From positions 3,037 through 67,036 of the forward strand of contig CAZBWQ010000010.1 in NCBI GenBank assembly GCA_964495565.1: a DNA stretch of 64,000 bases, written 5' to 3'. The notes beneath the pieces were generated by a model. That model saw only the letters and a program-made list of their open reading frames with translations, was not told the DNA's origin and did no database searches. How positions within the stretch are numbered: the first letter of the stretch is position 1; every line of letters starts with the position of its first letter. This DNA is from an uncultured Sandaracinaceae bacterium. GTDB taxonomy: Bacteria > Myxococcota_A > Polyangia > Polyangiales > Houyiibacteriaceae. Position numbers and translations under genes: made by a program. Positions 5,067-63,128 of the stretch are shown here, in pieces.

Positions 5067-5276
5067 ATGAAGAACGACGCGGGGGATAGGAACGAGCTCG
5101 ATCGAGCGAGGCGCCATTTTCTCAAAGCCGCGACCTACACGGCGCCGGCGATTCTCGCGACGATCACCCTGAACAGGGCCCACGCGCAGGCTGCGTCGTG
5201 CAATCCGTCGACCTGCGCGCCTGGGGTATGCAATCCGAACGACTGCATGCCGCTGGCCTGCATGCCCTTCGCCTGA
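5067..5276 (+). CDS. candidate RiPP precursor: twin-arginine-signal peptide with (C-x-P-x-x)x5 core
   Basis: 69 aa from ATG 5067 (GAGAGAG 4-10 nt upstream; GTG 4998 is an alternative start): MKNDAGDRNELDRARRHFLKAATYTAPAILATITLNRAHAQAASCNPSTCAPGVCNPNDCMPLACMPFA. Stop TGA overlaps the rSAM ATG (TGATG at 5274-5278). Confidence 0.6.
   Translation: MKNDAGDRNELDRARRHFLKAATYTAPAILATITLNRAHAQAASCNPSTCAPGVCNPNDCMPLACMPFA
5199..5273 (+). repeat. five contiguous in-register pentapeptide repeats C-x-P-x-x (peptide core)
   Basis: CNPST-CAPGV-CNPND-CMPLA-CMPFA, with invariant Cys1 and Pro3. The repeat runs exactly to the stop codon. tgcaatccg and tgcatgcc are each repeated at DNA level. Confidence 0.9.
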
Positions 5277-6418
5277 TGAGCCTCATGGACGGACGCAAGG
5301 CCGGCTACTTCTTGCCCGACGATTGGATCCTCTGGCAGAGCGAAGGACGGCTCGAAGCCATCCAGCTGAGCAGCGGCGAGCAAATTCGAATCGAGTGCGG
5401 CACGGAGGCAGGCGCGCTGACCGACCGGCTGTCGGCTTCGGTTTGGGATTCGCTCGCCCGATTCGAGCCTCTCGTGGGACAGCTCCGCGCACGACTGCGC
5501 GAGCAGCCTCTGCAACCGCTCACGCGCCAGGCAGTACTGCGCGGCTCCGGGTGGAGGCAGCTCTTCGTCGAGCTCACCAGCAAGTGCAACGAGCAATGCG
5601 TGCACTGCTATGCCGAGTCGTCGCCGCATCGCGTCGAGGCTTTGTCGTGGCCGGAGCTCCAAGGCGTGCTCGAGGACGCCAAGGCATTGGGCTTCGGCTT
5701 GGTGCAGCTCACCGGGGGCGATCCGCTCGTCAGCCCGCATTGCCTTCCGGCGGTGGAGCTCGGCCGCACGCTCGGAATTCCGCAGATCGAAATCTACACC
5801 AACGGGCTCGCACTGCGGGGAACGACCTACGACCGGCTGCGGGCGCTTCGACCGTCGTTTGCTTTTTCCTTCTACTCCCACGACCCCCAAACCCATGACG
5901 CGATCACCCAAACCGCGGGAAGTCATGCCCGCACCACGAGAGCGATTCGACGGGCCGTACGAGACGGGTTGCAGGTCCGAGTCGGCATGATTGCCATGGA
6001 GCAAAACCGAGGCCACGCATCGCGCGCGCGTGCTTACTTGCAAAGCCTCGGGGTAGCTCCTTCCGCGATCCGAATCGATCGAATGCGGGACGTCGGTCGC
6101 GGCCATCCCATGCAATGGGACGACGCCGACGACACGGCGGGCATGCGAGCAGGCGGCGTCGAGAGCGCCAAGCCGAGGAACTTCGGCGGCACGGCTGCGG
6201 TGAGCTACGACGGAAACGTCCATCCTTGCATCTTCAGCCGTCACCTTCTGCTCGGGTCGATCCGAAAGCAAAGCCTCGAAGCCATCCTGACGTCGGTCGA
6301 AGCGGTGGTCCCAGCCAAACGAAAGCTGCTGTCGGCCGCCCAGCAGTGGGAACAGAAGCTGGCCTGCTGGGAGTGCCGGGCCCGCTCTGCTCTGCTCGAC
6401 GGAAGTTACCATGCCTGA
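5276..6418 (+). CDS. radical SAM peptide-modifying enzyme (N-terminal extension; abridged SPASM/twitch-like C-terminus)
   Basis: CX3CX2C = CNEQCVHC (5585-5608) and a QLTGGDPL SAM-binding motif. C-terminal YDGNVHPCIF...LACWEC carries only 3 Cys. Start ATG 5276 chosen because the longer ORF from 5198 overlaps the peptide gene. Confidence 0.85.
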   Translation: MSLMDGRKAGYFLPDDWILWQSEGRLEAIQLSSGEQIRIECGTEAGALTDRLSASVWDSLARFEPLVGQLRARLREQPLQPLTRQAVLRGSGWRQLFVELTSKCNEQCVHCYAESSPHRVEALSWPELQGVLEDAKALGFGLVQLTGGDPLVSPHCLPAVELGRTLGIPQIEIYTNGLALRGTTYDRLRALRPSFAFSFYSHDPQTHDAITQTAGSHARTTRAIRRAVRDGLQVRVGMIAMEQNRGHASRARAYLQSLGVAPSAIRIDRMRDVGRGHPMQWDDADDTAGMRAGGVESAKPRNFGGTAAVSYDGNVHPCIFSRHLLLGSIRKQSLEAILTSVEAVVPAKRKLLSAAQQWEQKLACWECRARSALLDGSYHA

Positions 6419-6710
6419 CGCTTCGGAGCGGCGTGTGCCACGGCGCAAGAATACGCTCACGCACGAAGTCACCGAGACGGACGAAGTCGTGGTCTACGAC
6501 GGCAACCCCGAAAGCCCGCAACTGCTGGTGCTCAACGACACGGCCGCAGGCATTTGGCTCATGATCGACGGAAGCCGATCGGTGGCCGAGATCACGGCCG
6601 AAATTATGCGCCACGTCGACGCCGAACGCGAAACGGTGCTTCGGGACGTCATGGATTTCCTCGATGACCTCGAGCAACGGAAGCTGATCACGTGGAAAGA
6701 GGCCATCTAG
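6411..6710 (+). CDS. PqqD-family peptide chaperone (RRE-type)
   Basis: 99 aa. VVVYDGNPESPQLLVLNDTAAGIWLMIDGSRSVAEITAEIMRHV...VMDFLDDLEQRKLITW is a canonical PqqD pattern. 8-nt overlap with the rSAM gene. Confidence 0.8.
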   Translation: MPDASERRVPRRKNTLTHEVTETDEVVVYDGNPESPQLLVLNDTAAGIWLMIDGSRSVAEITAEIMRHVDAERETVLRDVMDFLDDLEQRKLITWKEAI

Positions 6711-11695: not shown

Positions 11696-12145
11696 ATGGT
11701 GCGTCTCGTGGCAATGGCAGCTTTGCTCGCATGGGGTTGCTCGGCAGCTCCGGCCGAAGGTGAGCCGGACGAGAGCCGTCAGGTTCAGACGATCGTGCGC
11801 AGCACCGCAAGCCCCTTTTGCCCGGGCAAGACCCTCGATTCCTGTCCGAGCCCGAAAGCTGCAGAGTGGCGCCAAGACATCAACGAGTGGGTGGCGGAAG
11901 GGGTCCCAGGCACGGAGATCCGAGATCGGCTCCAGGCCAGGGTGCCAGGCTTCGATTTGAGCATCCCGCCCGTGAAGTGGGGTTGGGTGATTCCCCTCGT
12001 CGCAGTCGCTCTGTCGACCTTGTGGTTCGTCGTCATGGCGCGACGCTACCGAAAGGCGAACGGGTCCGATCGACGACCCGTCGGACCCGTCCGCGACGAC
12101 CCGTTGGATGCACGGCTCGACGAGGAGCTGGCTCGCCTCGACTAG
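11696..12145 (+). CDS. CcmH/NrfF-like lipoprotein (cytochrome c maturation family, divergent)
   Basis: Lipobox LLAWGCS. FCPGKTLDSCPSPKAAEWRQDINEWVAEGVPGTEIRDRL followed by one TM helix mirrors CcmH architecture, but with C-x6-C instead of CxxC. Confidence 0.45.
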   Translation: MVRLVAMAALLAWGCSAAPAEGEPDESRQVQTIVRSTASPFCPGKTLDSCPSPKAAEWRQDINEWVAEGVPGTEIRDRLQARVPGFDLSIPPVKWGWVIPLVAVALSTLWFVVMARRYRKANGSDRRPVGPVRDDPLDARLDEELARLD

Positions 12146-12161
12146 CCTCGCCGTCGCCGCG

Positions 12162-13436
12162 TCACAGAAGCATCGCCGCGACCGCCGCGGTCATGAGCGA
12201 CGCGAGCATCCCTCCGAACATGGCGCGCAGCCCGAGCTTTGCGAGGTCGTGACGGCGCTCGGGTGCGATCCCTCCAATTCCGCCCAGCTGGATTCCGATC
12301 GAGCCGAAGTTGGCGAATCCGCAGAGGGCATAGCTCACGATGATCGCGGTCCGTGGCGATAGCGTGCTGCTTCCGTCGGCGAGGGCTTCGTGCAGATGGA
12401 GGTAGGCAATGAACTCCGTCAGGACGATCTTTTCACCGAGCAAGGCGCCTACCTGAGCGCATTCGGCGGCGGGAACTCCAATCAGAAAGGCAAAAGGCCA
12501 GAAGATGCCGCCCAAGATCCGTTGGATCGTCCACGGCTCGACGGCTGCATTTCCCTCGAGACCGGCCCACTGATTGTAGAGATCGAACGGCAGAGCGAGC
12601 AGCCCATTGGCCAACGCGATCAAGGCAATGAAGGCCAGCAGCATCGCGCCCACGTTGAGCGCGAGCTTCATGCCCTCGGTGGCGCCCCTGGCCGCCGCAT
12701 CGATCACGTTGGCGTCTCGACGCGGCGTGGTGACGACGCCTTGCTCGGCGCCCTGCGGAGGCTCGGTCTCCGGGCACATCACCTTGGCGATGACCAGGGC
12801 CGCCGGAGCGCTCATGACGCTCGCCGCGATGAGATGCCCCGCGATGTTTGGAACGATCCGCTCGAGCAGCCCGACGTATGCTGCGAGCACACCCCCGGCG
12901 ACGGTCGCAAATCCCCCCGTCATGACGGCCATGAGCTGCGACCTAGTCATTTTTCCGATGAACGGAGCGACCATCAGCGGCGCCTCGGTCTGACCCACGA
13001 AGGTATTGGCGGCAACGCACAACGTCTCGGGACCCGACGTCTGCATGGTACGACGCATGAGCCATGCGAAGCCGCTCACCAGCCGTTGCATGATGCCGAC
13101 GTAGTAAAACACGGTCATCAATGCCGAGAAGAAGATCAGGGTCGGCAGGACGTTGAGGGCGATCGTGAAGCGCTCGGAAGCAAAGTCGCCGAAGACGAAT
13201 TCGGTTCCTCGGGCCGTGAATCCGAGCAGGGCCAAAACTGCGTCGTTGAGGACGGCAAACACGGCGCGCCCCACGTCGGTCTTCATCACCACCAGGCCGA
13301 ACGAAAGCTGAAGCACGAGCCCCCACGCCACCACTCTCCATGGCATGCGGCTCCGATGCTCCGACAGCACCCAAGCCAGGCCCACCATCGCGAAGAGCCC
13401 AAGCAGAGGAACGATGCGCGGACCCAGCTCCTCCAT
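12162..13436 (-). CDS. concentrative nucleoside transporter (NupC/CNT family)
   Basis: Polytopic protein. MEELGPRIVPLLGLFAMVGLAWVLS..., GTEFVFG, NTFVGQTEAPL and GFANFGSIGIQ are CNT signatures. ATG 13436 preferred over 13511. Confidence 0.9.
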   Translation of the reverse strand: MEELGPRIVPLLGLFAMVGLAWVLSEHRSRMPWRVVAWGLVLQLSFGLVVMKTDVGRAVFAVLNDAVLALLGFTARGTEFVFGDFASERFTIALNVLPTLIFFSALMTVFYYVGIMQRLVSGFAWLMRRTMQTSGPETLCVAANTFVGQTEAPLMVAPFIGKMTRSQLMAVMTGGFATVAGGVLAAYVGLLERIVPNIAGHLIAASVMSAPAALVIAKVMCPETEPPQGAEQGVVTTPRRDANVIDAAARGATEGMKLALNVGAMLLAFIALIALANGLLALPFDLYNQWAGLEGNAAVEPWTIQRILGGIFWPFAFLIGVPAAECAQVGALLGEKIVLTEFIAYLHLHEALADGSSTLSPRTAIIVSYALCGFANFGSIGIQLGGIGGIAPERRHDLAKLGLRAMFGGMLASLMTAAVAAMLL

Positions 13437-13482
13437 CAGCGATTCCTTCCCCGCATCTCGTTTCCGGATTCGAGCGGGTCGC

Positions 13483-14751
13483 TCACTCGTACGGCACCTG
13501 AAAGCGTGCACGGTAAGGAGCGATGCGCGCCTCGACGTCGTCTTTCGTCATCCCGAAGTCGGCGAGCGAATAGCGGTGACGGCCGTACTTGTGTTGCTTG
13601 TCCACCTTGCGAGCCGCTTCCATTTCGCTCCGCGCGGCGTCGGTGAGATCGAGGTTGGCCGCCTCGTAGATGCGTGCAATCTCGGGGAGAGGATCCCGAA
13701 CCAGGTCGTAGTACGACACGTCGACGAAGCCGCGATTTTCGACTCGGTCGCGGGTCGCCATCGTGCGACGCGCCATGTTCTCGATTTTGCCCAACCAGTG
13801 ACTCGCGACCCGATGCGGATCGACGTCGTCGCTGAAAATCATCTGCAGATGGGTGAGCATGCTGAATAGCGAGGGGCTGGTCTTGAGAGGGTCGCGATGG
13901 GTGTGGACGATCGTCGCGTCGGGGAAGACCTCGAGCAGTGGATCGAAGTATTCTTGGTGATGGGGCGTCTTCAGGACCCAGCGGGTGGGCTTGCCGATGC
14001 CGGGCCGCTGCCACTGGAGATATTGCATCATCCGTTTTAGAGCCTCGTAGGCCGGCACGTGATCCTGATGCTCGAGCCAACGCGAATAGGTCGGCACGTT
14101 CATCATCGCTTCCGGAGTCGTCGTCAAGAATGCTTGCTCGAGGAGGATCACCTCTTCTTCGGGCGCCTCGGGCTCGGCCGGATGAATGGCGAAAAAGCCG
14201 GGTGACATGTACCGGAGCCCACGGGCGGCCGCCGCGGCTTGGGCGAATCGCGGATCCTTGCGCTGCCAAGGTCGCCGCGGAGGCGGCGCCGGGTTGATCG
14301 CCTCCCAGGAGGCGAGGGATCGAATCGCCGGGTCCCGGGCAATCAACCGGTGCAGCATGGTGGTTCCCGTACGCGCAAGGCCCGCTACGACCACCGGACC
14401 TTCGACGGGAATGTCGAGGATCTCCGGGTGCCGCCGAATCGTGTCGTGGGCGACCAGCTTGTTGGCCAAGACACCCACGATCCGCCCCCGAATGATCATG
14501 CGGCCCACCGTGTTGAGCGCAGCTTCACGATTGATCGAATCGATCAAAATCTCGAGCGGCTCGACGAATGCCTCGTCGCCGAAGTCGCTCAGCTCCGTCT
14601 TGCGTCGGGCGTCGTCCAACACACCGGACACGCTGATCGGTCCGCCGCCGATGCCCAGGCGCGAAAGCAGTCGTCCCACTCGGTTGGCGAACGCGATGGG
14701 CGCCGGACGATGAGGTCGATCGAACGCGCTCGTTACCACGTCGGACGCCAT
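13483..14751 (-). CDS. sulfotransferase family protein
   Basis: 5'-PSB-like loop VVVAGLARTGTTMLHRLI and downstream WVLKTPHHQEYF, typical of the Sulfotransfer_3-like family. Confidence 0.75.
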   Translation of the reverse strand: MASDVVTSAFDRPHRPAPIAFANRVGRLLSRLGIGGGPISVSGVLDDARRKTELSDFGDEAFVEPLEILIDSINREAALNTVGRMIIRGRIVGVLANKLVAHDTIRRHPEILDIPVEGPVVVAGLARTGTTMLHRLIARDPAIRSLASWEAINPAPPPRRPWQRKDPRFAQAAAAARGLRYMSPGFFAIHPAEPEAPEEEVILLEQAFLTTTPEAMMNVPTYSRWLEHQDHVPAYEALKRMMQYLQWQRPGIGKPTRWVLKTPHHQEYFDPLLEVFPDATIVHTHRDPLKTSPSLFSMLTHLQMIFSDDVDPHRVASHWLGKIENMARRTMATRDRVENRGFVDVSYYDLVRDPLPEIARIYEAANLDLTDAARSEMEAARKVDKQHKYGRHRYSLADFGMTKDDVEARIAPYRARFQVPYE

Positions 14752-14758
14752 GGCTCTC

Positions 14759-15859
14759 TCAGAGATCGGCCAGCTTCACGACGCGAGTCTGGGGCTCCGG
14801 ATGCTCGTCTGCGCGCACCCAGCGCCAGCACATGGTGCCTTCCTCGTGGCCGACGGTGTCGATCCAGTTGTCGAAGCCTTTGTCTCGAGCGGCCACGACG
14901 ACTCGAACGGAGCCGTCGGGACGATACTTGGCCGTGTGCTTGTTGACGTGCACTTGGTAGTAGCGGTAGTCGAGCGACTCCATCCAATAATTGTTGAGCT
15001 GAAAGTTCCAGTGCTCGCACTTCGGTGGCATGGCCTCGATCACCAGCGCTTCGTCCGGAGCGAGCTTCCAATAGCTGTGGTAGTACGCGATGTCCGGGAC
15101 GCCACCAGCCATGTTGGAGACGTTCTGATCGAAGCGCGGCAATTGGTTGATGTGCTTCTTGAAGCCCTCGGCCCAGCTCGCAAAGAGCATCGAAGCGCCC
15201 GCGACCAAGCCGGCGGCCATGGTCAGTCCCTCCGCGCATTTGACGGGATCGAAGGGCGTCGGCATGCCGTCTCCTCCGATTCGTTCGATGCGGAGATCGG
15301 CGATCGTCTCGTTGTCCCGGTCGAGCCGTGTTTGCCGAACGATCAGCGTGCCCGTGTCCTTTTCCATCGGGAGCCAGTTGCCCGGCTTCTCTTCGGTGCT
15401 GACGATGATCTCGAAGCTCCCATCGGGCTCGATCTCGAGCTCGGACGCCTCTAGATACCCGGTGGGCGGCATCCCACGACCTTGCCCGTAGTTTCCTTTC
15501 TGCGTGAAGAACCCGAGATAGTGAACCGTGCCCCGGTTGCCCCGGATGCGGTACTCGTGCTCCCCGCTGATGGCGGCGTTTTGATAGTAGTTGTCGGGGT
15601 GGTCGGCGCCCATTTTCGCCGTCTCGTGAACGACGCGTTGCAAGACGGGAGCCAGCGGATCGTTGTGCTCGACGAACGTCTGCAGCGCCGCGCGCGTGAT
15701 GCGGCTCAAGTATCGAAAGCCCTCCATCCGGTTCATCGGATCGCTCGGGGTGTTGGGCCCCATCACGACGTTGCCAGCCATCTTCAGCGTGTCGCAAAAC
15801 TGGTTCCAGACCGTTCCGTCGACGATCTCCTGCTCTTTCTTGGTCAGCTCATCACTCAT
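14759..15859 (-). CDS. conserved hypothetical protein (possibly DUF1214-like)
   Basis: 366-aa ORF with strong coding bias, 8 nt upstream of the sulfotransferase gene. Domain assignment is from memory only and is weak. Confidence 0.55.
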   Translation of the reverse strand: MSDELTKKEQEIVDGTVWNQFCDTLKMAGNVVMGPNTPSDPMNRMEGFRYLSRITRAALQTFVEHNDPLAPVLQRVVHETAKMGADHPDNYYQNAAISGEHEYRIRGNRGTVHYLGFFTQKGNYGQGRGMPPTGYLEASELEIEPDGSFEIIVSTEEKPGNWLPMEKDTGTLIVRQTRLDRDNETIADLRIERIGGDGMPTPFDPVKCAEGLTMAAGLVAGASMLFASWAEGFKKHINQLPRFDQNVSNMAGGVPDIAYYHSYWKLAPDEALVIEAMPPKCEHWNFQLNNYWMESLDYRYYQVHVNKHTAKYRPDGSVRVVVAARDKGFDNWIDTVGHEEGTMCWRWVRADEHPEPQTRVVKLADL

Positions 15860-15868
15860 TCGGTTTCC

Positions 15869-16879
15869 TCAACGTACGCCTTGGTCGTGCAACAGCGTTT
15901 CGGTCTTGGTCCACAACAACGCCCCTAGCTCCGGGTCCATCGATGCCTCGGAAGATTCTTTCACGCGCATCATGTGCATGTATACACCGGTCTTGGAGCC
16001 CATCTCGTCGGAAGTCGCGAGGTAGTCGACCGGAATCGACGCCTTCTCGGGGCTTTGAAAAAATACGCTCATCACGGGCTTCAAGATCGGCTTGAGCCAG
16101 ATTGGAGCTTCGCGTGCCATGTTCGAGTTGACCGCACCGGGGCACAAAGCGTGCACGCAAACGTCGGGGCTCTCCTCGCGACCGGCATTCAGCCGTCGCG
16201 ACAATTCGTGAAAATATGTCGTCAAATGCAGCTTGCTCGAGCCGTAGTACTTCACCCCGTCGGCGATTCCGTAGTCGACGGGCTCGCCAAAGCGATCGAA
16301 GTCGATCGGAATCGTGCTCCGGTGCGTCTCGGACGAGACGAAAATCACACGAGGGGGGTCCTCGGCCCGCGAATTGGCTCCGTACACGCCGTTCGGAATC
16401 ACCCCGTCTCGGAGCAATCGGCTCAGCACGACGAACTTGGCGAGAAAGTTCACGGCGAACATGAGGTCGAGGCCGTGCTTGTTGGTGCGGGCGGTCGCGG
16501 GAACCACGCCCGCGTTGAATACGGCAATGTCGAGGGTGACCTTTCGATCGCGCAACGTGTCGCAGAACCTCTCGATCGAGTCGAAATCGCTGAGATCGAC
16601 TTGGATCATCTCGACCGAAGGGTTTCCACTCGCGGCACGGACCTCTTCACCCGCTTCGGGAATGCCGCTGCGGCACGCCATGATCACGTGCGCCCCTCGT
16701 TCGGCGAGGCGAATGGCGATGGCCTTTCCGAGCCCGCTGTTGGCACCGGTCACGAGGCAGGTGCGTCCGTTTAAGCGCACGTGGGGCGAAACGGGGCTGA
16801 CTTTGGGCTTTTCGTGTCGCTGATCCAGGACGCCGCTCAAGACGGCGGACAGAGGATTGCCATGGGTTCGTTTGGCCAT
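15869..16879 (-). CDS. SDR family oxidoreductase (retinol-dehydrogenase-like)
   Basis: TGANSGLGKA (TGxxxGxG) and YYGSSKL (YxxxK). Confidence 0.9.
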   Translation of the reverse strand: MAKRTHGNPLSAVLSGVLDQRHEKPKVSPVSPHVRLNGRTCLVTGANSGLGKAIAIRLAERGAHVIMACRSGIPEAGEEVRAASGNPSVEMIQVDLSDFDSIERFCDTLRDRKVTLDIAVFNAGVVPATARTNKHGLDLMFAVNFLAKFVVLSRLLRDGVIPNGVYGANSRAEDPPRVIFVSSETHRSTIPIDFDRFGEPVDYGIADGVKYYGSSKLHLTTYFHELSRRLNAGREESPDVCVHALCPGAVNSNMAREAPIWLKPILKPVMSVFFQSPEKASIPVDYLATSDEMGSKTGVYMHMMRVKESSEASMDPELGALLWTKTETLLHDQGVR

Positions 16880-16913
16880 CGGGCGGGGACTCTAGAAAAC
16901 TGAGTCCTCAAGA

Positions 16914-17654
16914 TCAACGCGAAGCGGTAATCCGCAGATATTCCTCGACCACGGCGCCCAGCCCGACGAATAGCGCCCGCGAGATGAGCGCGTGTCCGAT
17001 CGACACCTCGTCGACGTGCGGAACCGAAAGAAAGAGCGGCAAGTTCGCGAGATCCAGGTCGTGGCCTGCGTTGACTCCCAGGCCACACGCCGATGCGCGT
17101 CGTGCCGCGCTGCGGTAGTGGGCGAGCGTCCTTTCCAGGTCCTCCCCCCCTCGCTCGAACGCGCGGGCGTATGGCTCCGTGTAGAGCTCGACCCGGTCGG
17201 CGCCGAGCTCGGCGGCCCAATCGATCGGCTCGGGCTACGGCTCCACGAACACGCTCACCCGAACCCCCCGTGCCCGAAGGCGCCCGATGATCTCCGCCAG
17301 CTCGTCCCTGGGCGTGCTCGCGGGCCAGCCGGCCTCGCTGGTGAGCTCGCCCGGACGTACGGGCACGAGAGTACACTGATCGGGACGCACCCGCTCGACC
17401 ATGTCGATCAGATCCGGCCTCGGATCCCCCTCGATGTTGTACTCGACTCGATCGCGGACCGGCGCAAGGGCTTCGGCGATTTCGTACACGTCGTCGGGCC
17501 GAATGTGGCGCTGATCGTCGCGCGGATGCACCGTAATCCCCGGCGCGCCTGCCTCGACGCAAACGCGAACGGCCTCCACGACGCTCGGCACGGATCCACC
17601 CCGAGAATTTCGGAGCGTGGCCACCTTGTTGACGTTGACGCTGAGGCGAGGCAT
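16914..17654 (-). pseudogene. pdxJ: pyridoxine 5'-phosphate synthase interrupted by an in-frame TAG
   Basis: Codons 1-139 (MPRLSVNVNKVATLRNSRGG...VSVFVEP) end at TAG (complement of 17235-17237). The same frame continues [23 protein letters not shown]...GVNAGHDL...[12 protein letters not shown] to TGA at 16914. Together they give a full-length 246-aa PdxJ. Confidence 0.85.
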
Positions 17655-17743
17655 CGGCCGAAGTCTTAGCGCAGGCGCTCGGCGTGTCAGCCACCCATTA
17701 CGCCTGGTGGCGCATCGTTTGATTTTTCGTAATATCTGCCTGT

Positions 17744-18535
17744 ATGAACGTCAGCGCCAAGGCCGTCGTGCTCGAGGTGCTTTCCGCGGGCCAGTCGATC
17801 TACGAGAGCACGCTGCCCGTCCGCTCGCTCGTGCAGGCTGCCTCGGTATTCGAGATCGCCGAGAATAGCGTGCGAGTCGCCATCGTCCGTCTGCGCGCCG
17901 AGGGCCTCATCGAGTCGCCTGCCCGAGGAGAATACCGCTTGGGTCCGGGCGCGAAGGTCGTCAACGAGAAGATCCACGGCTGGCGAAAGGTCGCCGAGCG
18001 TGTCGGACCCTGGGATGGCTCTTGGATGGCCGCATTCACCGCGGACCTTTCCCGGACCGACCGCCCCGCCCTCCGCCGGCGGCTTCGTGCGCTCCGCTAT
18101 CTCGGCTTCGAAGAGCTCAAGCCCGGTCTGTTCTTGAGACCGAACAATCTCACTCCGGGGATCGAGGGTGCTCGCGAAGAGCTAGAGGCCCTCGGTCTCG
18201 ACACCGAGGCCCTCGTGTTTCGAGTCGACGATCTCTCGCCAGCAGGGGAACGTCGCGCACGTGCTCTTTGGGACGGCGCGTCCCTCGAGCATGCATACGA
18301 ACAGCTGCATCGACGGCTCGCGAGCAGCATGCGTCGCCTCGACGATCTTTCGCTCCACGAGTCGGTGCGAGAATCCTTCTTGCTGGGACGAGAAGGAATT
18401 CGTCAGGTCGTGCTCGACCCCCTGTTGCCCGAGCCTCTGATCGACGAAGCAAAGCGCTCTACGATGGTCGGTGTCCTCGAGCGGTACTGCGACCGTGGGC
18501 TGGAGCTCTGGAGCCATTTCCTCCAAGTGGACTAG
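17744..18535 (+). CDS. PaaX-like transcriptional regulator
   Basis: N-terminal wHTH VVLEVLSAGQSIYESTLPVRSLVQAASVFEIAENSVRVAIVRLRAEGLI and a PaaX-type C-terminal domain. Confidence 0.7.
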   Translation: MNVSAKAVVLEVLSAGQSIYESTLPVRSLVQAASVFEIAENSVRVAIVRLRAEGLIESPARGEYRLGPGAKVVNEKIHGWRKVAERVGPWDGSWMAAFTADLSRTDRPALRRRLRALRYLGFEELKPGLFLRPNNLTPGIEGAREELEALGLDTEALVFRVDDLSPAGERRARALWDGASLEHAYEQLHRRLASSMRRLDDLSLHESVRESFLLGREGIRQVVLDPLLPEPLIDEAKRSTMVGVLERYCDRGLELWSHFLQVD

Positions 18536-18571
18536 CGGCGTCTCGGACGATTTCGAGTATGCTGCGGCGTC

Positions 18572-19504
18572 ATGAAGGCGGTGGATTTCAGGTTTGGCAC
18601 GGTCGATGGTGCCAACGTGTACGTGCGTGGCTGGGTCGTCGATCGACCCAAAGCGATCGTGCAGGTGCTTCACGGGATGGCGGAGCATGGAGCGAGGTAC
18701 GAACGCTTGGCGCGGGCGCTCGCGTCGGCGGGGTACGGCACGTATGCCCACGACCATCGCGGACACGGCCAGAGCATCGCCGACGGAGTGCCCCCGGGGC
18801 ACATTGCCGACAGCGATAGCTGGAACCGGATCGTCGAGGACGCGCACGGGATCAACCGCGAGATCGCCAAGCGCCATCCGGGGGTTCCGATCATCATCCT
18901 CGGTCACTCGATGGGGTCGTTCGTGCTGCAGCAGCTCTTGTTCGAGCGTCCGAGCGACATGATCGCTGCAGCTCTTTCTGCGTCGAACGGAAAGCCACCG
19001 CCCATCGCTTCGGTGGGCAAAGTGGTCGCTCGCATGGAGAGATTGCGCGTGGGCAAACGGAGTCCGAGCCCGATTCTGCAGCGTCTCACCTTCGGCGAAT
19101 ACAACAAAGCCTTTGCGCCGACACGCACGGAGTTCGATTGGCTCTCGCGCGACCCGGCCGAGGTGGACGCGTACGTCGCCGACCCGCTGTGCGGGTTCGC
19201 GGTCTCGACCCAGGTTTGGATCGACATGCTGGATGCGCTCGACCGCATCGCAAAACCGAGCAACGTCGCCAAGATCCCCAAAGACAAACCGCTCTATTTG
19301 TTCGCCGGTGACCAGGACCCCGTCGGCGACTTCGGCAAGGGCATGAAGCGCCTGCACGATGCCTACAAGCGCGCGGCGATCTTCGACGTGCGGTTGAAGC
19401 TCTACCCCGAGGGCCGTCACGAGATGCTGAACGAGACCAATCGGGACGAAGTCACCGCGGACCTGATCGGTTGGTGCGACGAGGTGGTCGCCGCAGCTCG
19501 CTAG
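18572..19504 (+). CDS. alpha/beta hydrolase (lysophospholipase/monoglyceride-lipase-like)
   Basis: HGMAEHGARY, HRGHGQS, nucleophile elbow GHSMGS. The stop shares a CTAG palindrome with the convergent gene. Confidence 0.85.
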   Translation: MKAVDFRFGTVDGANVYVRGWVVDRPKAIVQVLHGMAEHGARYERLARALASAGYGTYAHDHRGHGQSIADGVPPGHIADSDSWNRIVEDAHGINREIAKRHPGVPIIILGHSMGSFVLQQLLFERPSDMIAAALSASNGKPPPIASVGKVVARMERLRVGKRSPSPILQRLTFGEYNKAFAPTRTEFDWLSRDPAEVDAYVADPLCGFAVSTQVWIDMLDALDRIAKPSNVAKIPKDKPLYLFAGDQDPVGDFGKGMKRLHDAYKRAAIFDVRLKLYPEGRHEMLNETNRDEVTADLIGWCDEVVAAAR

Positions 19505-20394
19505 GAGGGACGGCTGGTGTAGAGGGGGCCTTCCACTCGACCACGCACCAACGGTCGCGTTTCGGACGTGATCCGGCATCGCCAAAGAGCGCTTCGCGAT
19601 CCGATGGACTCGGCGCCGCGGTACTCGTTGAAGTCCTCCCACACGCACTCGATTAGCAAGCCCGCGTCGCACAAGACGCGTTGTTTGTGAAGACCGCGCT
19701 CGCTCGCCCGCCGGCTTTGGCCGAAGCAGACATAGAGCCGGCCATCCGGCTTGAGCATCTCGACGGCCCTGCTCACGAAAAGCTGAAAGCCCTCTACCGC
19801 GTAGGGCGGGTCCGTGAAGACCGCGCCGAAGCGACTCTTCAACCTCTTGGGGACGGGCTCACGCAGATCGTGCTCGATCACGTCGTGATCCCATGCGGAT
19901 TGCGCCGCATGTCGGGTCAGGATTCCGAGGATTTCCGGATCGGTATCGAGCACGGTGATCTTTCGTCCGGCTCCGGCGAGCTGGACGGCCGCGCTCGTCA
20001 GATCGTCGTCGCCGAGAAAAGCCAAACCGCGCTGGTGCTCTCCGGCTTCGAGCAACAGCGATGCACGCCGGATCACGGTATCCGTCGTGACGTACACCTG
20101 GTCGAGCGCTCGTTTGGGCGATCCTCGTTCTGCCGCGATCCGCTCGTACTCGTCGCGCCAGCTCGCGGAGTCCGGCGCTGGAAGCGTTCTCGCCACCAGC
20201 TCCCGAGCGAGCGCAGCCAGGCCGCGTTCCGAGCATTGGATCCGCCCGTCGTCGAGGTGGAACCACTGCGGATAGCGGCTCACTACGTCCCGAACGACCG
20301 AGGATGCCTCACCTGCAATCCGGACTACCTCGTCCTGCGAGAGCGATCGACCGTCGCCGAGTGCTCTGAGGATGCGGAACGCCCCTTCGTACAC
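19501..20394 (-). CDS. DUF43-family (bis-aminopropyl-spermidine-synthase-like) transferase with N-terminal wHTH
   Basis: GTG start. ITVLDTDPEIL and AVFTDPPYAVEG (DPPY motif), then LKPDGRLYVCFG. Confidence 0.6.
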   Translation of the reverse strand: MYEGAFRILRALGDGRSLSQDEVVRIAGEASSVVRDVVSRYPQWFHLDDGRIQCSERGLAALARELVARTLPAPDSASWRDEYERIAAERGSPKRALDQVYVTTDTVIRRASLLLEAGEHQRGLAFLGDDDLTSAAVQLAGAGRKITVLDTDPEILGILTRHAAQSAWDHDVIEHDLREPVPKRLKSRFGAVFTDPPYAVEGFQLFVSRAVEMLKPDGRLYVCFGQSRRASERGLHKQRVLCDAGLLIECVWEDFNEYRGAESIGSRSALWRCRITSETRPLVRGRVEGPLYTSRPS

Positions 20395-44637: not shown

Positions 44638-44662
44638 ATCGAGGATGCGGGGGCTTTTTTCT
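44630..44662 (+). terminator. rho-independent terminator (attenuator) upstream of ilvB
   Basis: Perfect 11-bp stem gcccccgcatc (44630-44640) / gatgcgggggc (44644-44654), 3-nt loop, then tttttt ctt. Confidence 0.85.
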
Positions 44663-44857
44663 TGGCAAGAACCTCATGAATCAACATACATACCGGAAAA
44701 ATTCAGGCACAAAGCCCTGCTGGGCGATGGCCCAGCTCGCCCCGATCGAAGGTGCCCGGTCATCGCTCGACCCGGCGCCTTTTTCGTTCGAGGCCGCGTG
44801 CTTGAATGCGGCGCCAAATCCACTACGCGCTGCCAGCCAGCATCGAAGGAGACAGTC

Positions 44858-46630
44858 GTGACACCGCCCAATCCCAAGCTCAAGAATCGCATCGGCGAAT
44901 CGCTCTCTGGCGCTGAGATCATCTGGGAGGCGCTGGTACGCGAGGGGGTCGAGGTCTGCTTCGGCTACCCGGGTGGGGCGATCATGCCCGCGTACGACGC
45001 GATGATTCAGTATCCGATCCACCACGTGCTGACGCGTCACGAGCAAGGCGCCTCGCACATGGCGGACGGCTACGCACGCGCGTCGGGACAGGTCGGTGTC
45101 TGCATCGCCACCTCGGGCCCCGGCGCCACCAACCTCGTCACCGGCATCGCCACGGCCATGCTGGACTCGATCCCGATGGTCTGCATCACCGGTCAGGTTC
45201 CTTCGCAGCTCATCGGAAGCGATGCCTTCCAAGAGACCGACATCACGGGCTGCACCCTACCCATCACCAAGCACAACTACTTGGTGACGAAGCCCGAGCA
45301 GATCGCGCCGACGATTCGAGAGGCTTTCTACATCGCGCGCTCCGGCCGCCCCGGGCCCGTCGTAGTCGACATCACCAAGGATGCCCAGCAGCAGAGCTGC
45401 GTGCTCGAGTGGAACGACGAAGAGATCGTCTTGCCGGGCTATCGTCCCGACTACACCCCGCTCGCGGAGCAACTCGAGGAAGCCGTCGACCTCATCAAGA
45501 ATTCCAAGCGGCCGATCCTCTTTGCAGGGCAAGGGGTGATCAAATCCCAAGCCAGCCAGACGCTCATCGACTTCATCGAAAAGACGAACATCCCGGTGGC
45601 CTGCACGCTCCTCGGTCTCGGAGGATTTCCCGCGACCCATCCTCGCAATCTCGGAATGATGGGCATGCACGGCGAAACCTGGGTCAACAAAGCGATTCAG
45701 GATGCCGATTTGATCATTGCAGTCGGCATGCGATTCGACGACCGCGTGACGGGCAATCTCAAGACCTACGCCCCGAACGCAAAGAAGATTCACATCGAGC
45801 TCGACCCTGCGGAGATCAACAAGAACGTTCGTGTCGACGTCCCAATCGTCGGCGACGCGCGCACCGTCTTGCAGGAGCTGCTTCCGCACGTCGACCGCCG
45901 CGACCGGCCCGAATGGTTGGCCTACATCGACGACCTCAAGGGAAATTCGGCGGTCCGTGACATCAAGAATCTCCCCGACCTCGGAAAGCTCTACGCGGCC
46001 CACGTGATCCACGATCTCTACCGCTTCACCGAGGGCAAGGCGCTGGTCGTCACCGACGTCGGACAGCACCAGATGTGGGAGGCCCAGTATTACAAGCACG
46101 ATTACCCGCGGAAGCTGCTCACCTCGGGCGGGCTGGGCACGATGGGCTTCGCGCTCCCTGCTGGGATCGGCGCCAAATTCGCCCAACCCAACGAGTCGGT
46201 GTGGGTCGTGTGCGGCGACGGCGGCTTTCAGATGACGCAAGCCGAGCTCTCCACCTGCGCGCAGGAAGGGATCAAAGTGAACGTCGCCATCATCAACAAC
46301 GGGTACTTGGGGATGGTGCGGCAATGGCAGGAGTTCTTCTTCGGCGGCCGCTACGTCGCGACTCCCTTGCGGAGCCCCGACTTTGTCAAGATCGCCGAAG
46401 CGCATGACTTGACCGGGTTGCGCGTCGAAACTCGGGCTGGGGTCGAGGAAGCGGTTCGGAAGGCAGAAGCGACCGAAGGGACCGTGGTGATCGACTTCCG
46501 AGTGGAGCAAGAGGACTCGGTCTATCCAATGGTCCCGGCCGGCGCGAACCTGCACGACATGATCGAGAGGCCATACAAGCCCGGCGAGCAAGCCCACAAC
46601 CCGATCTTCGAAACCGGGGAGGACGAGTGA
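44858..46630 (+). CDS. ilvB: acetolactate synthase, large subunit
   Basis: GTG 44858 preceded by AAGGAG. GYPGGAIMPAYDA and the TPP-binding GLGTMGFALPAGIGA...GDGGFQM. Confidence 0.92.
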   Translation: MTPPNPKLKNRIGESLSGAEIIWEALVREGVEVCFGYPGGAIMPAYDAMIQYPIHHVLTRHEQGASHMADGYARASGQVGVCIATSGPGATNLVTGIATAMLDSIPMVCITGQVPSQLIGSDAFQETDITGCTLPITKHNYLVTKPEQIAPTIREAFYIARSGRPGPVVVDITKDAQQQSCVLEWNDEEIVLPGYRPDYTPLAEQLEEAVDLIKNSKRPILFAGQGVIKSQASQTLIDFIEKTNIPVACTLLGLGGFPATHPRNLGMMGMHGETWVNKAIQDADLIIAVGMRFDDRVTGNLKTYAPNAKKIHIELDPAEINKNVRVDVPIVGDARTVLQELLPHVDRRDRPEWLAYIDDLKGNSAVRDIKNLPDLGKLYAAHVIHDLYRFTEGKALVVTDVGQHQMWEAQYYKHDYPRKLLTSGGLGTMGFALPAGIGAKFAQPNESVWVVCGDGGFQMTQAELSTCAQEGIKVNVAIINNGYLGMVRQWQEFFFGGRYVATPLRSPDFVKIAEAHDLTGLRVETRAGVEEAVRKAEATEGTVVIDFRVEQEDSVYPMVPAGANLHDMIERPYKPGEQAHNPIFETGEDE

Positions 46631-47172
46631 TGTCGCAGTCCGTCAAGAGAATCTTTGCCGTGTTCGTCGAGGACAAGCCCGGCGTTCTGAATCGCGTCGC
46701 CTCGCTCTTCCGCCGAAGGAGCTTCAACATCGACTCGCTCAACGTCGGCGCCACGCAGGAGCCGGGAGTCTCGCGAATGACCATCGTCTGCGAAGCGGAC
46801 GAGGATACCGCGAAGCGAATCGAAGCGAATCTCTACAAGATGGTCAACGTGCTCTGGGTCGACGACATCACCCACAAGCAGACGATCAGCCGTGTGCTCG
46901 CCCTGATCAAGGTCACCTGCGATCGCGAGCAGCGCGACGAAATCCTGCGGATTTGCGAGGTGTTCCGGGCGCGTGCAATCGACATGTCGCCAGATCGGCT
47001 CACGATCGAGATCACGGGACCGCAAGACAAGGTCGACGGGCTGGTTTCCGTCCTTCGTCCGTTCGGGATCTTGGAGCTCGTTCAGACGGGTACCGTCGCG
47101 ATGACTCGCGGCGCCGAAAAGCACGACCTGGCCCACCCGACGGTGCCAGCCTCCCGCAGCTCAGCGGCATAA
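46630..47172 (+). CDS. ilvN: acetolactate synthase, small (regulatory) subunit
   Basis: ACT domain: RIFAVFVEDKPGVLNRVASLFRRRSFNIDSLNVGATQEPGVSRMTIV. Start overlaps the ilvB stop (tgATG). Confidence 0.9.
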   Translation: MSQSVKRIFAVFVEDKPGVLNRVASLFRRRSFNIDSLNVGATQEPGVSRMTIVCEADEDTAKRIEANLYKMVNVLWVDDITHKQTISRVLALIKVTCDREQRDEILRICEVFRARAIDMSPDRLTIEITGPQDKVDGLVSVLRPFGILELVQTGTVAMTRGAEKHDLAHPTVPASRSSAA

Positions 47173-48213
<1,041 letters not shown>

Positions 48214-48252
48214 GACAGGTGCCGCGATCACGCGGCCCCAGGAGAATGAATC

Positions 48253-49890
48253 ATGCAACCCGACCACGTACGGATCTTCGACACGACTCTCCGTGATGGA
48301 GAGCAATCCCCTGGCGCGACGATGACCTCGTCGGAGAAGCTAGAGGTGGCGAAGACCCTATCGCGGCTGGGTGTCGACATCATCGAGGCTGGCTTCGCGG
48401 CCGCCTCTCCCGACGATTTGCGCGCCGTCAAGAGCATTGCAGAAGCCGTCGGGGTCACGGGAGTCGAGGGGCGGCCGGTGCCGGAGCCCCCGACGATCTG
48501 CAGCTTGGCCCGCGCCCACAAGTCCGACATCGACCAGGCGGCCGAGGCGATCGCGCCGGCCAAGCACGGCCGAATCCACACCTTCCTCGCCACCTCGCCG
48601 ATTCACCGCGAGCACAAGCTCCGGATGACGAAAGATCAGGTGCTCGCCAAGATCACCGAGATGGTGTCGTACGCGCGCAGCCTGCGGGAGGACGTGGAGT
48701 TCAGCCCGGAGGACGCGGGCCGAACCGAGATGGAGTTTCTCTACGAGGCGTTGCAAGCAGCCATCGAGGCAGGCGCCACCACCCTGAACATTCCAGATAC
48801 CGTGGGCTACACGATTCCGGCCGAATTCGGCGAGCGCATCGCGATGATCCGGGAAAACGTACCCGGCATCGAGAATGCGGTGATCAGCGTCCACTGCCAC
48901 AACGATCTCGGCCTCGCCGTCGCGAACAGCCTCGCAGCCGTGCAGAACGGAGCACGCCAGGTCGAGGTCGCCGTCAATGGCATCGGCGAGCGGGCTGGAA
49001 ATGCCTCACTCGAGGAAGTCGTGATGGCGCTCTACGTTCGGGGTGACCTCTACGGAATCGGAACGCAGATCGACACCACGCAGCTCACGCGTGCGAGCCG
49101 TTTGGTGAGCAAGGTGACGGGCATGGTCGTGCAGCCGAACAAGGCGATCGTCGGTGCCAATGCCTTCGCGCACGAAGCCGGCATCCACCAAGACGGGATG
49201 CTCAAGCACGAGGAAACGTACGAGATCATGCGTCCCGAGACGGTCGGTGCTGGCAAGACCCAGCTCGTCTTGGGCAAGCACTCGGGCAGGCACGCCTTCG
49301 CGAACCGTTTGGCCGAGCTCGGTTACCCCGTCTCCGGCGACGGGCTCGACAAGGCGTTTGCGCGTTTCAAGAAGCTCGCCGACAAGAAGAAGTACATCAC
49401 CGATGCCGACTTGGTGGCGCTGGTCAGCGACGAGCTCTACCAGCCGACGGAGTACTGGAGGCTCGACAAGATCCAGGTCGGGTGTGGAACCGGCATGCCA
49501 ACCGCGACCGTACGCCTCGTCGGACCGGACGGACAGACCCGAATCGCCGCGGAGGTCGGCACCGGACCGGTGGATGCGGTTTACAAAGCGATTCAATCGC
49601 TGGTCCACGTGCCGTGCACTCTACTCGAGTACAACGTGCAGTCGGTAACCGAGGGCATCGATGCCCTGGGCGAGGTCAGCGTGCGAGTCATTCCTGGCGA
49701 GCACGATCTCGGTCCGGATCGCATCAATCCCCAGCACGAGCAGTCTCGCGCGCGGGTGTTTCACGGGCATGGCGCACACACCGACATCATCGTCGCGAGC
49801 GCCAAGGCCTACGTCGCGGCGATCAATCGAATTCTCGCCATCCGAGAGGCGACCCAGAAGGAGAGCAAGGCAGCCGGCAGCGCTGCATGA
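48253..49890 (+). CDS. leuA: 2-isopropylmalate synthase
   Basis: [26 protein letters not shown], and a C-terminal LeuA dimer/regulatory domain. Confidence 0.9.
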
Positions 49891-51308
49891 CGACCATCAT
49901 GGAACCACGAACACTATTTCAGAAAGTCTGGGACGATCACGTCGTCGTTCAGGAGGCGAACCGCCCGGCAGTCCTCTACATCGACTTGCATCTGATTCAC
50001 GAAGTCACCTCTCCGCAGGCATTCACCGGCCTTCGCGAGCGGGGCTTGCGGGTGCGACGCCCCGACCTGACGGTGGCGACGATGGACCACTCGACTCCGA
50101 CGCTCCCGAAGTCTCTGTGGGTAATCGACGATCAGGCCAAAGCCCAGCTCGCCCAGCTCGAGCGAAACAGCGAAGAGTTTGGAATCGAGCTGTTCCGGCT
50201 CGGGGACCGCCGCAATGGCATCGTGCACGTCATCGGACCGGAGCGTGGGCTGACGCAACCCGGCAAAACCATCGTGTGCGGCGACAGCCACACGTCGACG
50301 CACGGCGCGTTCGGCGCGTTGGCATTCGGGATCGGAACCAGCGAGGTCGAGCACGTGCTGGCGACCCAGTGTCTGCTGCAGCGAGAGCCGAAGACGTTCG
50401 AGGTTCGGGTGGAAGGCCAACTGATGCCCGGAGTGACGGCCAAGGACATCATCCTGGCGCTCTGTGCCGAGATCGGAACGGGCGGCGCCACCGGTTACGT
50501 CATCGAGTACACGGGCCCGGCCATTCGCAGTCTCGACATGGAGGGTCGCATGACCGTCTGCAACATGAGCATCGAGGCGGGTGCCCGAGCGGGCATGATC
50601 GCACCGGACGACACGACGTTCGCCTATCTGGAGGGACGTGATCGAGTGCCCAAGGGAGCCGATTGGGACGCTGCGGTGGAGCGCTGGCGCAACCTTCGCA
50701 CCGACGATGGGGCGACTTACGACAAGACCGTCGTCATCGACGCCAACAAGCTGGAGCCGATGATCACCTACGGGACGAACCCCGGAATGGGCATGCACAT
50801 CACCGACGCGATGCCGACGGTGGATTCGTTCTCGGATCCTTCCCAGCGGGCCGCCTTCGAAAAAGCGATGAAGTACATGGATCTCGCCCCTGGCGAGCCT
50901 CTGCTCGACAAGAAGATCGACGTGGTCTTCATCGGGTCCTGCACGAATTCCCGCATCGGCGATCTACGGATGGCTGCAGGGGTCATGAGCGGGCGCAAGG
51001 TGGCCTCGGGTGTTCGCACCCTGGTCGTACCGGGGTCTCACGACGTGAAGAAGCAGGCCGAGGCAGAGGGGCTCGACCAGATCTTCAAGGAAGCCGGGGC
51101 CGAGTGGCGAGAGCCCGGGTGCTCGATGTGCATCGCGATGAATGGCGACAATCTCGAGCCGGGCCAGTACGCGGTGAGCACCTCGAATCGAAACTTCGAA
51201 GGCCGGCAGGGCAAAGGTGGACGCACGTTCCTCGCATCTCCTCTGACCGCTGCGGCTGCCGCCGTCACCGGCAAGGTCACCGACCCCCGAAGCTTGCTGC
51301 TCGGGTGA
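49887..51308 (+). CDS. leuC: 3-isopropylmalate dehydratase large subunit
   Basis: ATGA overlap with leu[20 protein letters not shown] and [12 protein letters not shown] (aconitase Fe-S ligands). Confidence 0.93.
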
Positions 51309-51320
51309 GAGAGAATCGAC

Positions 51321-51908
51321 ATGGCAAAGTTCAAGACACTGACATCGCACGCCGTCCCGCTTCCCGCGGACAACGTGGATACGGACCAGATCATCCCTGC
51401 ACGCTTTCTGAAGGTGACGGACAAGCACGGCCTGGGCGACAACCTGTTTTCCGACTGGCGTTATCTCAAGGATGGCTCGCCGAACCCCGATTTCGTCCTC
51501 AACGAGCCCGCGTCGCAGGGGGCTCAGATTCTGATTGCCGGCGACAATTTCGGCAGCGGATCTTCGCGCGAGCACGCGCCATGGGCCCTGGTCGGCTGGG
51601 GATTCCGTGCGATCATATCCACCCGCTTCGCGGACATCTTCAAGAGCAACTCACTCAAGAACGGGCTGCTGCCGGTGGAAGTGAGCCCCGAGGTCCACAG
51701 GGAGCTCATGGAGCGGGTTCAGCGCGATCGCACGACGCAAATCACGATCGACCTGCCCAGCCAGACCGTGAAGGCCGCCGGCGGAATCGAGGCGACCTTC
51801 CCCATCGACGACTTTTCGAAACACTGCCTCCTCGAGGGTATCGATCAGCTCGGTTACCTCTTGTCGTTCGAGGATGAGATCACGCGCCATGAGCAACGAC
51901 GCCCTTAA
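51321..51908 (+). CDS. leuD: 3-isopropylmalate dehydratase small subunit
   Basis: GDNFGSGSSREHAPWAL. Confidence 0.93.
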   Translation: MAKFKTLTSHAVPLPADNVDTDQIIPARFLKVTDKHGLGDNLFSDWRYLKDGSPNPDFVLNEPASQGAQILIAGDNFGSGSSREHAPWALVGWGFRAIISTRFADIFKSNSLKNGLLPVEVSPEVHRELMERVQRDRTTQITIDLPSQTVKAAGGIEATFPIDDFSKHCLLEGIDQLGYLLSFEDEITRHEQRRP

Positions 51909-53517
51909 CGGCTCCGGCCCCGTCGTAGAGATTTACGACACCACGCTGCGCGATGGAACGCAGATGGAGGGCATGAGCCTGTCTTGCGACGACAAGATTC
52001 GAATCGCCGAGCATCTCGACGCGCTCGGTGTCACGTTCATCGAGGGCGGCTGGCCAGGATCGAATCCGAAGGACGTGGAGTTTTTCGAGCGGGCGAAGGG
52101 CATGGCGTGGAAGAACGCGACGATCGCCGCATTCGGGTCGACTTGCCGGGCCCAGCTTCGTCCCGAAGACGACAAGCAACTCCGCACTTTGCTCGATGCG
52201 GAAACGCCGGTCTGCACGATCTTCGGCAAGAGCTGGAACATGCACGTGACCGAAGTGCTCCGCACCACACTCGACGAGAACCTCCGCATGGTGGAACAAA
52301 GCGTCGCATTCCTCGGTGGTCACGGCCGACGTGTCATCTACGACGCAGAGCACTTCTTCGACGGGTACAAGTCGGACGCCGAGTACGCGCTCCAAACGCT
52401 GCGAGCTGCCGCGCGGGGCGGTGCCGAAACACTGGTGTTGTGCGACACCAACGGCGGCTCCATGCCCTGGGAGGTGGAAGCGATCGTCCACGACGTGCGG
52501 AAAGCCCTCCCCGAGGCGAGGCTCGGGATTCATGCCCACAACGACGGGGAGTGCGGAGTGGCCAATTCGGTAGCTGCCGTGCGGGCTGGAGCTCATCACG
52601 TGCAAGGCACGGTCAACGGCTACGGAGAGCGCTGCGGCAATGCGAACCTGTGCTCGATCATTCCGGACGTGGAGCTCAAGCTGGGCCTTCGGTGTCTGCC
52701 CGAAGGAGGCCTTCGTCAGCTCTACGATCTCGCGCATTTCGTCGCGGAGATCGCCAATTTGAATCCGAACGATCATGCCGCGTACGTCGGACGCAGCGCG
52801 TTTGCCCACAAAGGAGGCGTGCACGTCTCGGCCATTCGGCGGCATCCGGAGTCGTACGAGCACGTCGACCCGGCTCTCGTCGGCAACTCGTCACGGGTCG
52901 TGGTGAGCGAGCTCTCGGGGCGCAGCAACGTCCTCAGCAAGGCCGAAGAGCTCGGGCTGCAGGTCAGCTCGGATCACGGTGGACGGGTGCTCGAGAAGAT
53001 CAAGGAGCTCGAGGCCAAGGGGTTCGCATACGAGGCTGCCGAGGCTTCGGTCGCGCTCCTGATGGCGCGTCAGCAGGCCGACTACGTACCGCCATTCGAG
53101 GTGCTCGATTTCCAGGCGAGTGTCGGGCGGCGACGCGGTGGCGGGATGTTCGCCGAGGCCACGGTCAAGGTTCAGATCGGCGACGAGGTGGTGCACACCG
53201 CGGGCGAAGGGAATGGCCCCGTGAGCGCGCTCGACTCTGCGCTCCGCAAGGCGCTACGGCCGTCCTTCCCTCGAGTCGCGGACATTCACCTGAGCGACTA
53301 CAAGGTGCGAATTCTCGACGGCCACAGCGGGACGGGCGCGACTACCCGAGTCCTCATCGACAGCCAGTCGGAGCACGACACATGGAGCACCGTCGGCGCT
53401 TCGAGCAACATCATCGAGGCTTCGCTGCAAGCCTTGATCGATAGCATCGAGTATGGGCTCAGGTTGCAGGGTGCCAGGGACGAAAAGGGCATTCCCGAGC
53501 ACGCTCCGCAGACTTAG
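51889..53517 (+). CDS. cimA: citramalate synthase (LeuA-paralogue, CimA type)
   Basis: IYDTTLRDGTQMEGMSLSCDDKIRIAEHLDALGVTFIEGGWPGSNPKD matches the CimA-type N-terminus. Start at 51889 or 51874, and either overlaps the leuD end. Confidence 0.75.
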   Translation: MSNDALNGSGPVVEIYDTTLRDGTQMEGMSLSCDDKIRIAEHLDALGVTFIEGGWPGSNPKDVEFFERAKGMAWKNATIAAFGSTCRAQLRPEDDKQLRTLLDAETPVCTIFGKSWNMHVTEVLRTTLDENLRMVEQSVAFLGGHGRRVIYDAEHFFDGYKSDAEYALQTLRAAARGGAETLVLCDTNGGSMPWEVEAIVHDVRKALPEARLGIHAHNDGECGVANSVAAVRAGAHHVQGTVNGYGERCGNANLCSIIPDVELKLGLRCLPEGGLRQLYDLAHFVAEIANLNPNDHAAYVGRSAFAHKGGVHVSAIRRHPESYEHVDPALVGNSSRVVVSELSGRSNVLSKAEELGLQVSSDHGGRVLEKIKELEAKGFAYEAAEASVALLMARQQADYVPPFEVLDFQASVGRRRGGGMFAEATVKVQIGDEVVHTAGEGNGPVSALDSALRKALRPSFPRVADIHLSDYKVRILDGHSGTGATTRVLIDSQSEHDTWSTVGASSNIIEASLQALIDSIEYGLRLQGARDEKGIPEHAPQT

Positions 53518-53573
53518 TGATTGCCCTTCCGGCGTGCCACGTGCATGATGGCGCGCCCCGTAGGTGACCAGAC

Positions 53574-57120: not shown

Positions 57121-57236
57121 GCCGAGCTTATCGTCAAGCGAGCGCCGGGGTTGCTTGATTTCGCCGAGCACTTAGGTGGCGGCGACGCCGGATTTTCGCG
57201 GTGTGAGTCCTAAGTATTTGGAATTGCGAATTTTTT

Positions 57237-62310: not shown

Positions 62311-62322
62311 CTGCAGATTCTC

Positions 62323-63123: not shown

Positions 63124-63128
63124 GCCCG

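Follow-up and report, generated by a model that had tools for sequence, protein, structure and literature searches.

A single private amber codon interrupts an otherwise intact pdxJ frame in an uncultured bacterium

The closest described relative of the frame analyzed here is PdxJ, the pyridoxine 5'-phosphate synthase (PF03740; TIGR00559/NF003626; structures 6w6a and E. coli 1ho1/1m5w), which the frame resembles from end to end, except that the gene as written encodes the first 139 residues alone. Bacterial genomes often carry nonsense alleles specific to a strain, and in such nascent pseudogenes, as at our locus, a cofactor-biosynthesis gene is inactivated by one point mutation private to one genome of a population; here, however, the gene carries neither a second lesion nor relaxed constraint, and the allele is known from one assembly consensus. 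Consensus errors in MAGs likewise appear as an isolated substitution contradicted by all other assemblies of the population, whereas the sequence around this one holds no other error-like difference. Programmed read-through and pyrrolysine systems also present an in-frame UAG followed by intact, conserved coding sequence, but here the stop is unconserved, TAG terminates neighboring genes, and the window (the whole 64-kb stretch of DNA that was analyzed) holds neither an accompanying structure nor a tRNA. We conclude that the stop is either a newly arisen knockout or an erroneous base, both of them well-known and ordinary phenomena, and is neither recoding nor decay.

The interrupted frame and its expected product

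The following features, all on the minus strand, make up the interrupted gene.
16914..17654, minus strand: pdxJ frame, 246 codons plus TGA, broken at codon 140 (Pfam, NCBIfam, PDB and P0001 matches)
17235..17654, minus strand: terminated ORF, a 139-aa N-terminal fragment with strands beta1-beta5 (ORF list, AlphaFold2)
17235..17237, minus strand: in-frame amber TAG at codon 140, variable base 17237 (five near-identical contigs read GAG)
17226..17243, minus strand: three tandem hexamers, GAGCCG-[G/T]AGCCC-GAGCCG, reading E-P-E-P-E-P if intact (sequence and P0001)
16917..17234, minus strand: 106 intact codons covering alpha5 and beta6-beta8 (alignment, model, dN/dS)

An ORF running from 17654 to 17235 starts with ATG and encodes 139 aa (MPRLSVNVNK...GVRVSVFVEP) before the TAG, according to both the ORF list and the sequence. 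Past the TAG, 106 sense codons follow in the same frame and are closed by a TGA at 16916-16914. The initial annotation, which had described an ORF ending in GVRVSVFVEP-TAG (17235-17237) and a frame reading on to the TGA at 16914, agrees with the sequence on both points. Just two pieces of this frame appear in the ORF list, the 139-aa ORF (17235..17654) and an in-frame 42-aa remnant starting with TTG (16914..17042).

Profile and structure matches were run on the 246-residue product with the TAG position entered as X. The joined frame matched PF03740 with E=1.8e-83 and 279.7 bits (cut-off 24.5) over model positions 1-233 of 234, and it passed the cut-offs of the NCBIfam equivalog NF003626 (316 bits, cut-off 222) and of TIGR00559 (249.9 bits, cut-off 192.75). 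Solved PdxJ structures were also matched, 6w6a with E=3.5e-63 and E. coli 1m5w with E=9e-42, and one ungapped alignment spans the TAG. The match of the joined frame to PdxJ is far above chance. Pfam, NCBIfam and the 6w6a and 1m5w alignments all bear out the earlier assignment of the tail to the C-terminal half of PdxJ, although the end quoted for that tail ('EEYLRI') was misplaced, the true end lying four residues further. The frame does not offer an uninterrupted ORF for the whole barrel, being broken by the TAG at codon 140 with no usable restart.

For the intact allele, AlphaFold2 predicts (pLDDT 86.6, pTM 0.85) a (beta/alpha)8 barrel with strands at residues 3-7, 39-42, 71-76, 93-96, 132-137, 154-157, 193-196 and 216-219, in which codon 140 falls within the loop that joins beta5 to helix alpha5 (141-150). 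Position 140 is occupied by E in 98, D in 18, K in 3 and Q in 1 of the 120 closest homologues. The site had been called a conserved linker, a description that fits the beta5-alpha5 loop and its conserved adjoining residues and that overstates residue 140 itself, which is only moderately conserved.

Residues aligned with E. coli N9, R20, H45, R47, H52, E72, T102/T103, E153, H193, G215 and H216 (numbering taken from the structure alignment) are all present in the joined frame and invariant among close homologues. These include His45, Arg47, His52, Glu72, Glu153, His193, Gly215 and His216, which we take to be the active-site and phosphate-binding residues of E. coli PdxJ. In the numbering of the frame itself, these are H43, R45, H50, E75, E156, H198, G220 and H221, none of which varies across 25 homologues, and the last four (aligned with E. 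coli Glu153, His193, Gly215 and His216) fall after the TAG. If the base is real, release factor 1 would terminate translation at codon 140, in the beta5-alpha5 loop, to yield a 139-residue, five-strand fragment without beta6-beta8 and four invariant residues. With these strands and the invariant active-site residues missing, the fragment should be inactive, making the allele null.

A G-to-T change private to one assembly

Base 17237 is A on the plus strand and T on the coding strand. A protein search recovered a public 246-aa protein (P0001) that has the same residue as the window frame at the other 245 positions and Glu at position 140. Four short Logan contigs, each from a different sequencing run, carry the gene for this protein, and the neighboring SDR gene led to a fifth contig, from SRR7091317. 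Codon 140 is GAG in 5/5 of the near-identical contigs that cover it (L001-L004 and L010/L095), which come from five SRA runs (SRR22452322, SRR22452307, SRR22452321, SRR33785060 and SRR7091317). Glu140 of P0001 and the five GAG codons uphold the initial annotation in its view that the TAG replaces one sense codon. The comparison with related strains that it had suggested thus returned GAG in every near-identical contig, and a stop in 0/80 genome loci.

For the wider population, positions 12024-19843 and 45124-49222 of the window were compared with contigs L001-L004, L010-L013, L094 and L095. Base 17237 is the sole difference between the window and either L002 (1,441 bp) or L004 (1,130 bp), and over 6,975 bp (12869-19843) aligned with eight near-identical contigs it is the sole site at which all covering contigs stand against the window. 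All other bases of pdxJ are identical to those of L001, L002 and L004. L003 stands for a strain a little further removed (11 differences over 1,436 bp). Five other differences separate the window from the near-identical contigs, all of them synonymous and at third positions; the TAG is the only non-synonymous difference over the ~11 kb compared. The lesion is one base change, coding-strand G to T (plus-strand C to A), private to the window's assembly. It changes the first base of the middle of the three hexamers. Relatives carry DPEPGP or DPEPAP at the hexamer run, and the triple repeat (EPEPEP) is specific to this lineage.

The population is present at >=99.9% nucleotide identity in at least seven SRA runs (SRR22452307/321/322, SRR33785049/060, SRR7091317 and SRR24144918). 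Its all-synonymous pattern of differences, at ~3-4 per 10 kb, is the signature of real strain polymorphism under purifying selection and not of random error, and polymorphism at this density makes a genuine private SNP plausible. The 139-aa truncated product was not on record in a protein look-up, nor were two longer proteins of the window. A 36-mer with N at the variable base had no match in GTDB representative genomes or JGI metagenomes.

The closest species representative has 88% identity in PdxJ. As reference relative we used contig L005, which shows the same PdxJ identity and whose PdxJ (P0002) is one that a source names Myxococcales bacterium SG8_38; the sequence similarities point to an uncultured SG8_38-like member of Polyangia/Myxococcota as the organism. 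In tblastn searches with the proteins of L005, 21 flanking genes (~7.6-26.8 kb) were colinear with the relative and recovered as single full-length segments free of stops and frameshifts, and pdxJ alone contained a stop. Across the remaining window, Pfam domains are complete, and same-frame adjacent ORF pairs are separate genes with different domains. With flanking genes whole, domains complete and ORF pairs accounted for as separate genes, we rejected a generally poor assembly or a pseudogene-rich region as the setting of the lesion.

Comparison with two relatives gave dN/dS values of 0.061-0.063 before the TAG (codons 1-139) and 0.078-0.092 after it (codons 141-246); the half after the TAG has been constrained like the half before it, essentially to the present. 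A decaying pseudogene would be expected to show several lesions or relaxed selection, and we found one lesion only. These low ratios in both halves, together with the whole neighboring genes, match the earlier remark that no further decay is visible. A second intact pdxJ, which would have turned this copy into a redundant one, was likewise looked for and none was found within the 64-kb window. An old pseudogene or redundant paralogue was rejected on the single lesion, the low dN/dS and the lack of a second copy in the window. Pfam scans, and gene labels for 7.6-28.6 kb, detected no pdxA, pdxH, pdxS, pdxT or pdxK/Y in the window.

Competing readings of the amber codon

In this genome TAG works as a normal stop. 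It ends three genes next to pdxJ at the ends of their orthologues, namely those for a PaaX-like protein (17744-18535), an alpha/beta-hydrolase (18572-19504) and a BpsA_C-like protein (19501-20394), and an alternative code with TAG as sense does not accord with its use as terminator of conserved genes. No stop occurs at site 140 in any of 120 homologous proteins, 80 species-representative genome loci or five near-identical contigs; the lone '*' among the 80 loci, in Enhygromyxa salina, is a natural terminator near the C-terminus. The window contained no tRNA genes and no match to Rfam elements, and the 126 nt from the TAG fold no better than their shuffles (z = -0.44). Past the TAG, the frame holds no canonical start until a TTG at codon 205 (window position 17042), 65 codons on, and near the TAG the only possible start is a non-canonical ATC. 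With no usable start after the TAG, the C-terminal half appears untranslatable by itself. Genetic-code reassignment or pyrrolysine was dropped as a candidate on the three neighboring genes that TAG ends, the lack of a tRNA in the window and the unconserved stop; a split two-piece enzyme on the 65 codons without a canonical start; and a read-through stimulator on the ordinary downstream fold and the lack of an Rfam match.

We propose, tentatively and with a confidence just short of even, that the TAG marks a very young loss-of-function pdxJ allele that segregates in the sampled strain of an SG8_38-like Polyangia population or is confined to that strain. Probabilities for this and all other readings are order-of-magnitude estimates. 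The region around the TAG speaks for such an allele, in that it holds no other error-like difference and its 21 flanking genes are intact and colinear, as does the similar density of real polymorphism between samples. The allele would be too recent for secondary decay, and a strain with a null pdxJ would depend on B6 salvage or cross-feeding. Weighing against a young allele, a nonsense change is the least expected real polymorphism in a gene with dN/dS < 0.1 in a population whose 5/5 other differences are synonymous, and the TAG occurs in no other assembly of the collections searched.

An assembly, polishing or base-call error, in which case the organism has GAG (Glu140) and an intact pdxJ, fits the same data equally well, and we regard it as a serious possibility that falls somewhat below an even chance. 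The GAG in 5/5 independent assemblies of the same population and the lack of the TAG allele from all collections searched favor an error, as do the base-for-base identity of the remaining gene with L001, L002 and L004 and the position of the TAG as sole non-synonymous difference in ~11 kb, in a gene that is strongly constrained (dN/dS < 0.1). The direction of the change adds to these points, C-to-A and G-to-T being the classic type of oxidative-damage artefact. However, the region is otherwise clean, with no indels, missense differences or broken genes among the 21 flanking genes and the Pfam-scanned remainder; well-covered assemblies seldom carry consensus substitution errors; and comparable real polymorphism separates these samples.

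A real stop could also be tolerated, if basal near-cognate read-through of the UAG (in the context Pro-UAG-C) inserted a residue such as Gln, Tyr or Lys; we consider this improbable. Such a leak would supply enough full-length PdxJ for the small cellular demand for PLP, and the site looks permissive, since the model puts residue 140 in a surface loop and close homologues have E, D, K or Q there. Termination in E. coli works poorly where the stop is followed by a C and where the last residue is Pro. The fully intact downstream frame is in keeping with read-through, but it is equally explained by a lesion that is very recent or unreal. Read-through products have been shown at a few native bacterial stops, where they are described as rare (PMC5373646). 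The 0/120 proteins and 0/80 loci with a stop indicate that the codon is not a selected recoding site, and neither a tRNA in the window, an Rfam element nor an unusual fold accompanies it. Programmed UAG recoding would call for a conserved stop and a stimulatory structure or tRNA, and we found neither within the window. Read-through had been listed among the options in the initial annotation, and the unconserved stop and the lack of a window tRNA or downstream structure leave that option without positive support.

A programmed arrangement, be it reassigned TAG or pyrrolysine, a split PdxJ or a redundant decaying paralogue, has in its favor the bare fact of an open frame on both sides of the TAG and is very improbable indeed, as three flanking genes end in TAG at orthologue ends, no relative has the stop, the first canonical restart at codon 205 leaves the C-terminal piece without a translation route, and the window shows no second pdxJ, no extra lesion and no relaxed dN/dS.

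The finding matters little beyond annotation hygiene. If the young null allele is real, de novo (DXP-dependent) synthesis of vitamin B6 would only recently have disappeared from one strain of a sediment-dwelling, uncultured myxobacterium, a minor addition to the record of cofactor auxotrophy and cross-feeding within natural communities; as a natural B6 auxotroph the strain would live on cross-fed vitamers, a milder outcome than that of read-through, under which a housekeeping cofactor gene would be naturally running on basal leakage past a stop. If instead the base is an error, one wrong call hides a core gene from ORF-based annotation and distorts MAG metabolic reconstructions. Either way, we recommend labeling the locus pdxJ with an internal stop in place of a 139-aa hypothetical protein, and basing comparative work on the intact GAG allele.

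The pdxJ gene string and the rest of the window

Downstream of pdxJ lie four genes on the same strand, each identified by full-length tblastn against L005 and its Pfam label, and a divergent gene lies upstream.
15869-16879, minus strand: SDR
14759-15859, minus strand: DUF1214-like
13483-14751, minus strand: sulfotransferase (Sulfotransfer_3)
12165-13436, minus strand: CNT nucleoside transporter
17744..18535, plus strand: divergent PaaX-family regulator gene, with its TAG at the orthologue's end (orthologue comparison)

Genes and strand agree with the initial annotation, in which pdxJ heads a minus-strand string of SDR, hypothetical (the DUF1214-like gene), sulfotransferase and CNT. Successive intergenic gaps downstream of pdxJ are 34, 9, 7 and 46 nt. 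SG8_38-like Polyangia contigs (loci L005-L009) keep the order of divergent PaaX-like gene, pdxJ, SDR, DUF1214-like gene, sulfotransferase and, usually, CNT, and the gaps are narrow there too. The short gaps and the order kept in relatives are consistent with co-transcription. The 318 nt left untranslated after the TAG contain 105 C and 111 G, with no excess of C over G, and two terminator-like sites against 1.7 expected, a chance level. Given this composition and the chance-level terminator-like sites, polarity on the downstream genes is possible and is not predicted.

Elsewhere in the window (5090-6707, plus strand), the gene for a radical SAM/SPASM protein overlaps a PqqD-family ORF behind it, a combination typical of RiPP peptide maturation. 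A branched-chain amino acid cluster (44645-54650, plus strand) comprises the acetolactate synthase large and small subunits, ilvC, leuA, leuC, leuD and leuB, and includes a second HMGL-like/LeuA_dimer paralogue (51874-53517) that is possibly a citramalate synthase. An IS200-like Y1 transposase domain (56464-57171, minus strand; PF01797, E=4e-10) stands alone between malic enzyme and SDR genes. Genes of a meta-cleavage lower pathway (60389-63876, minus strand), which encode a 4-hydroxy-2-oxovalerate aldolase (HMGL-like plus DmpG_comm), an acetaldehyde dehydrogenase and an FAA-hydrolase-family hydratase, are bordered by several acyl-CoA dehydrogenases.
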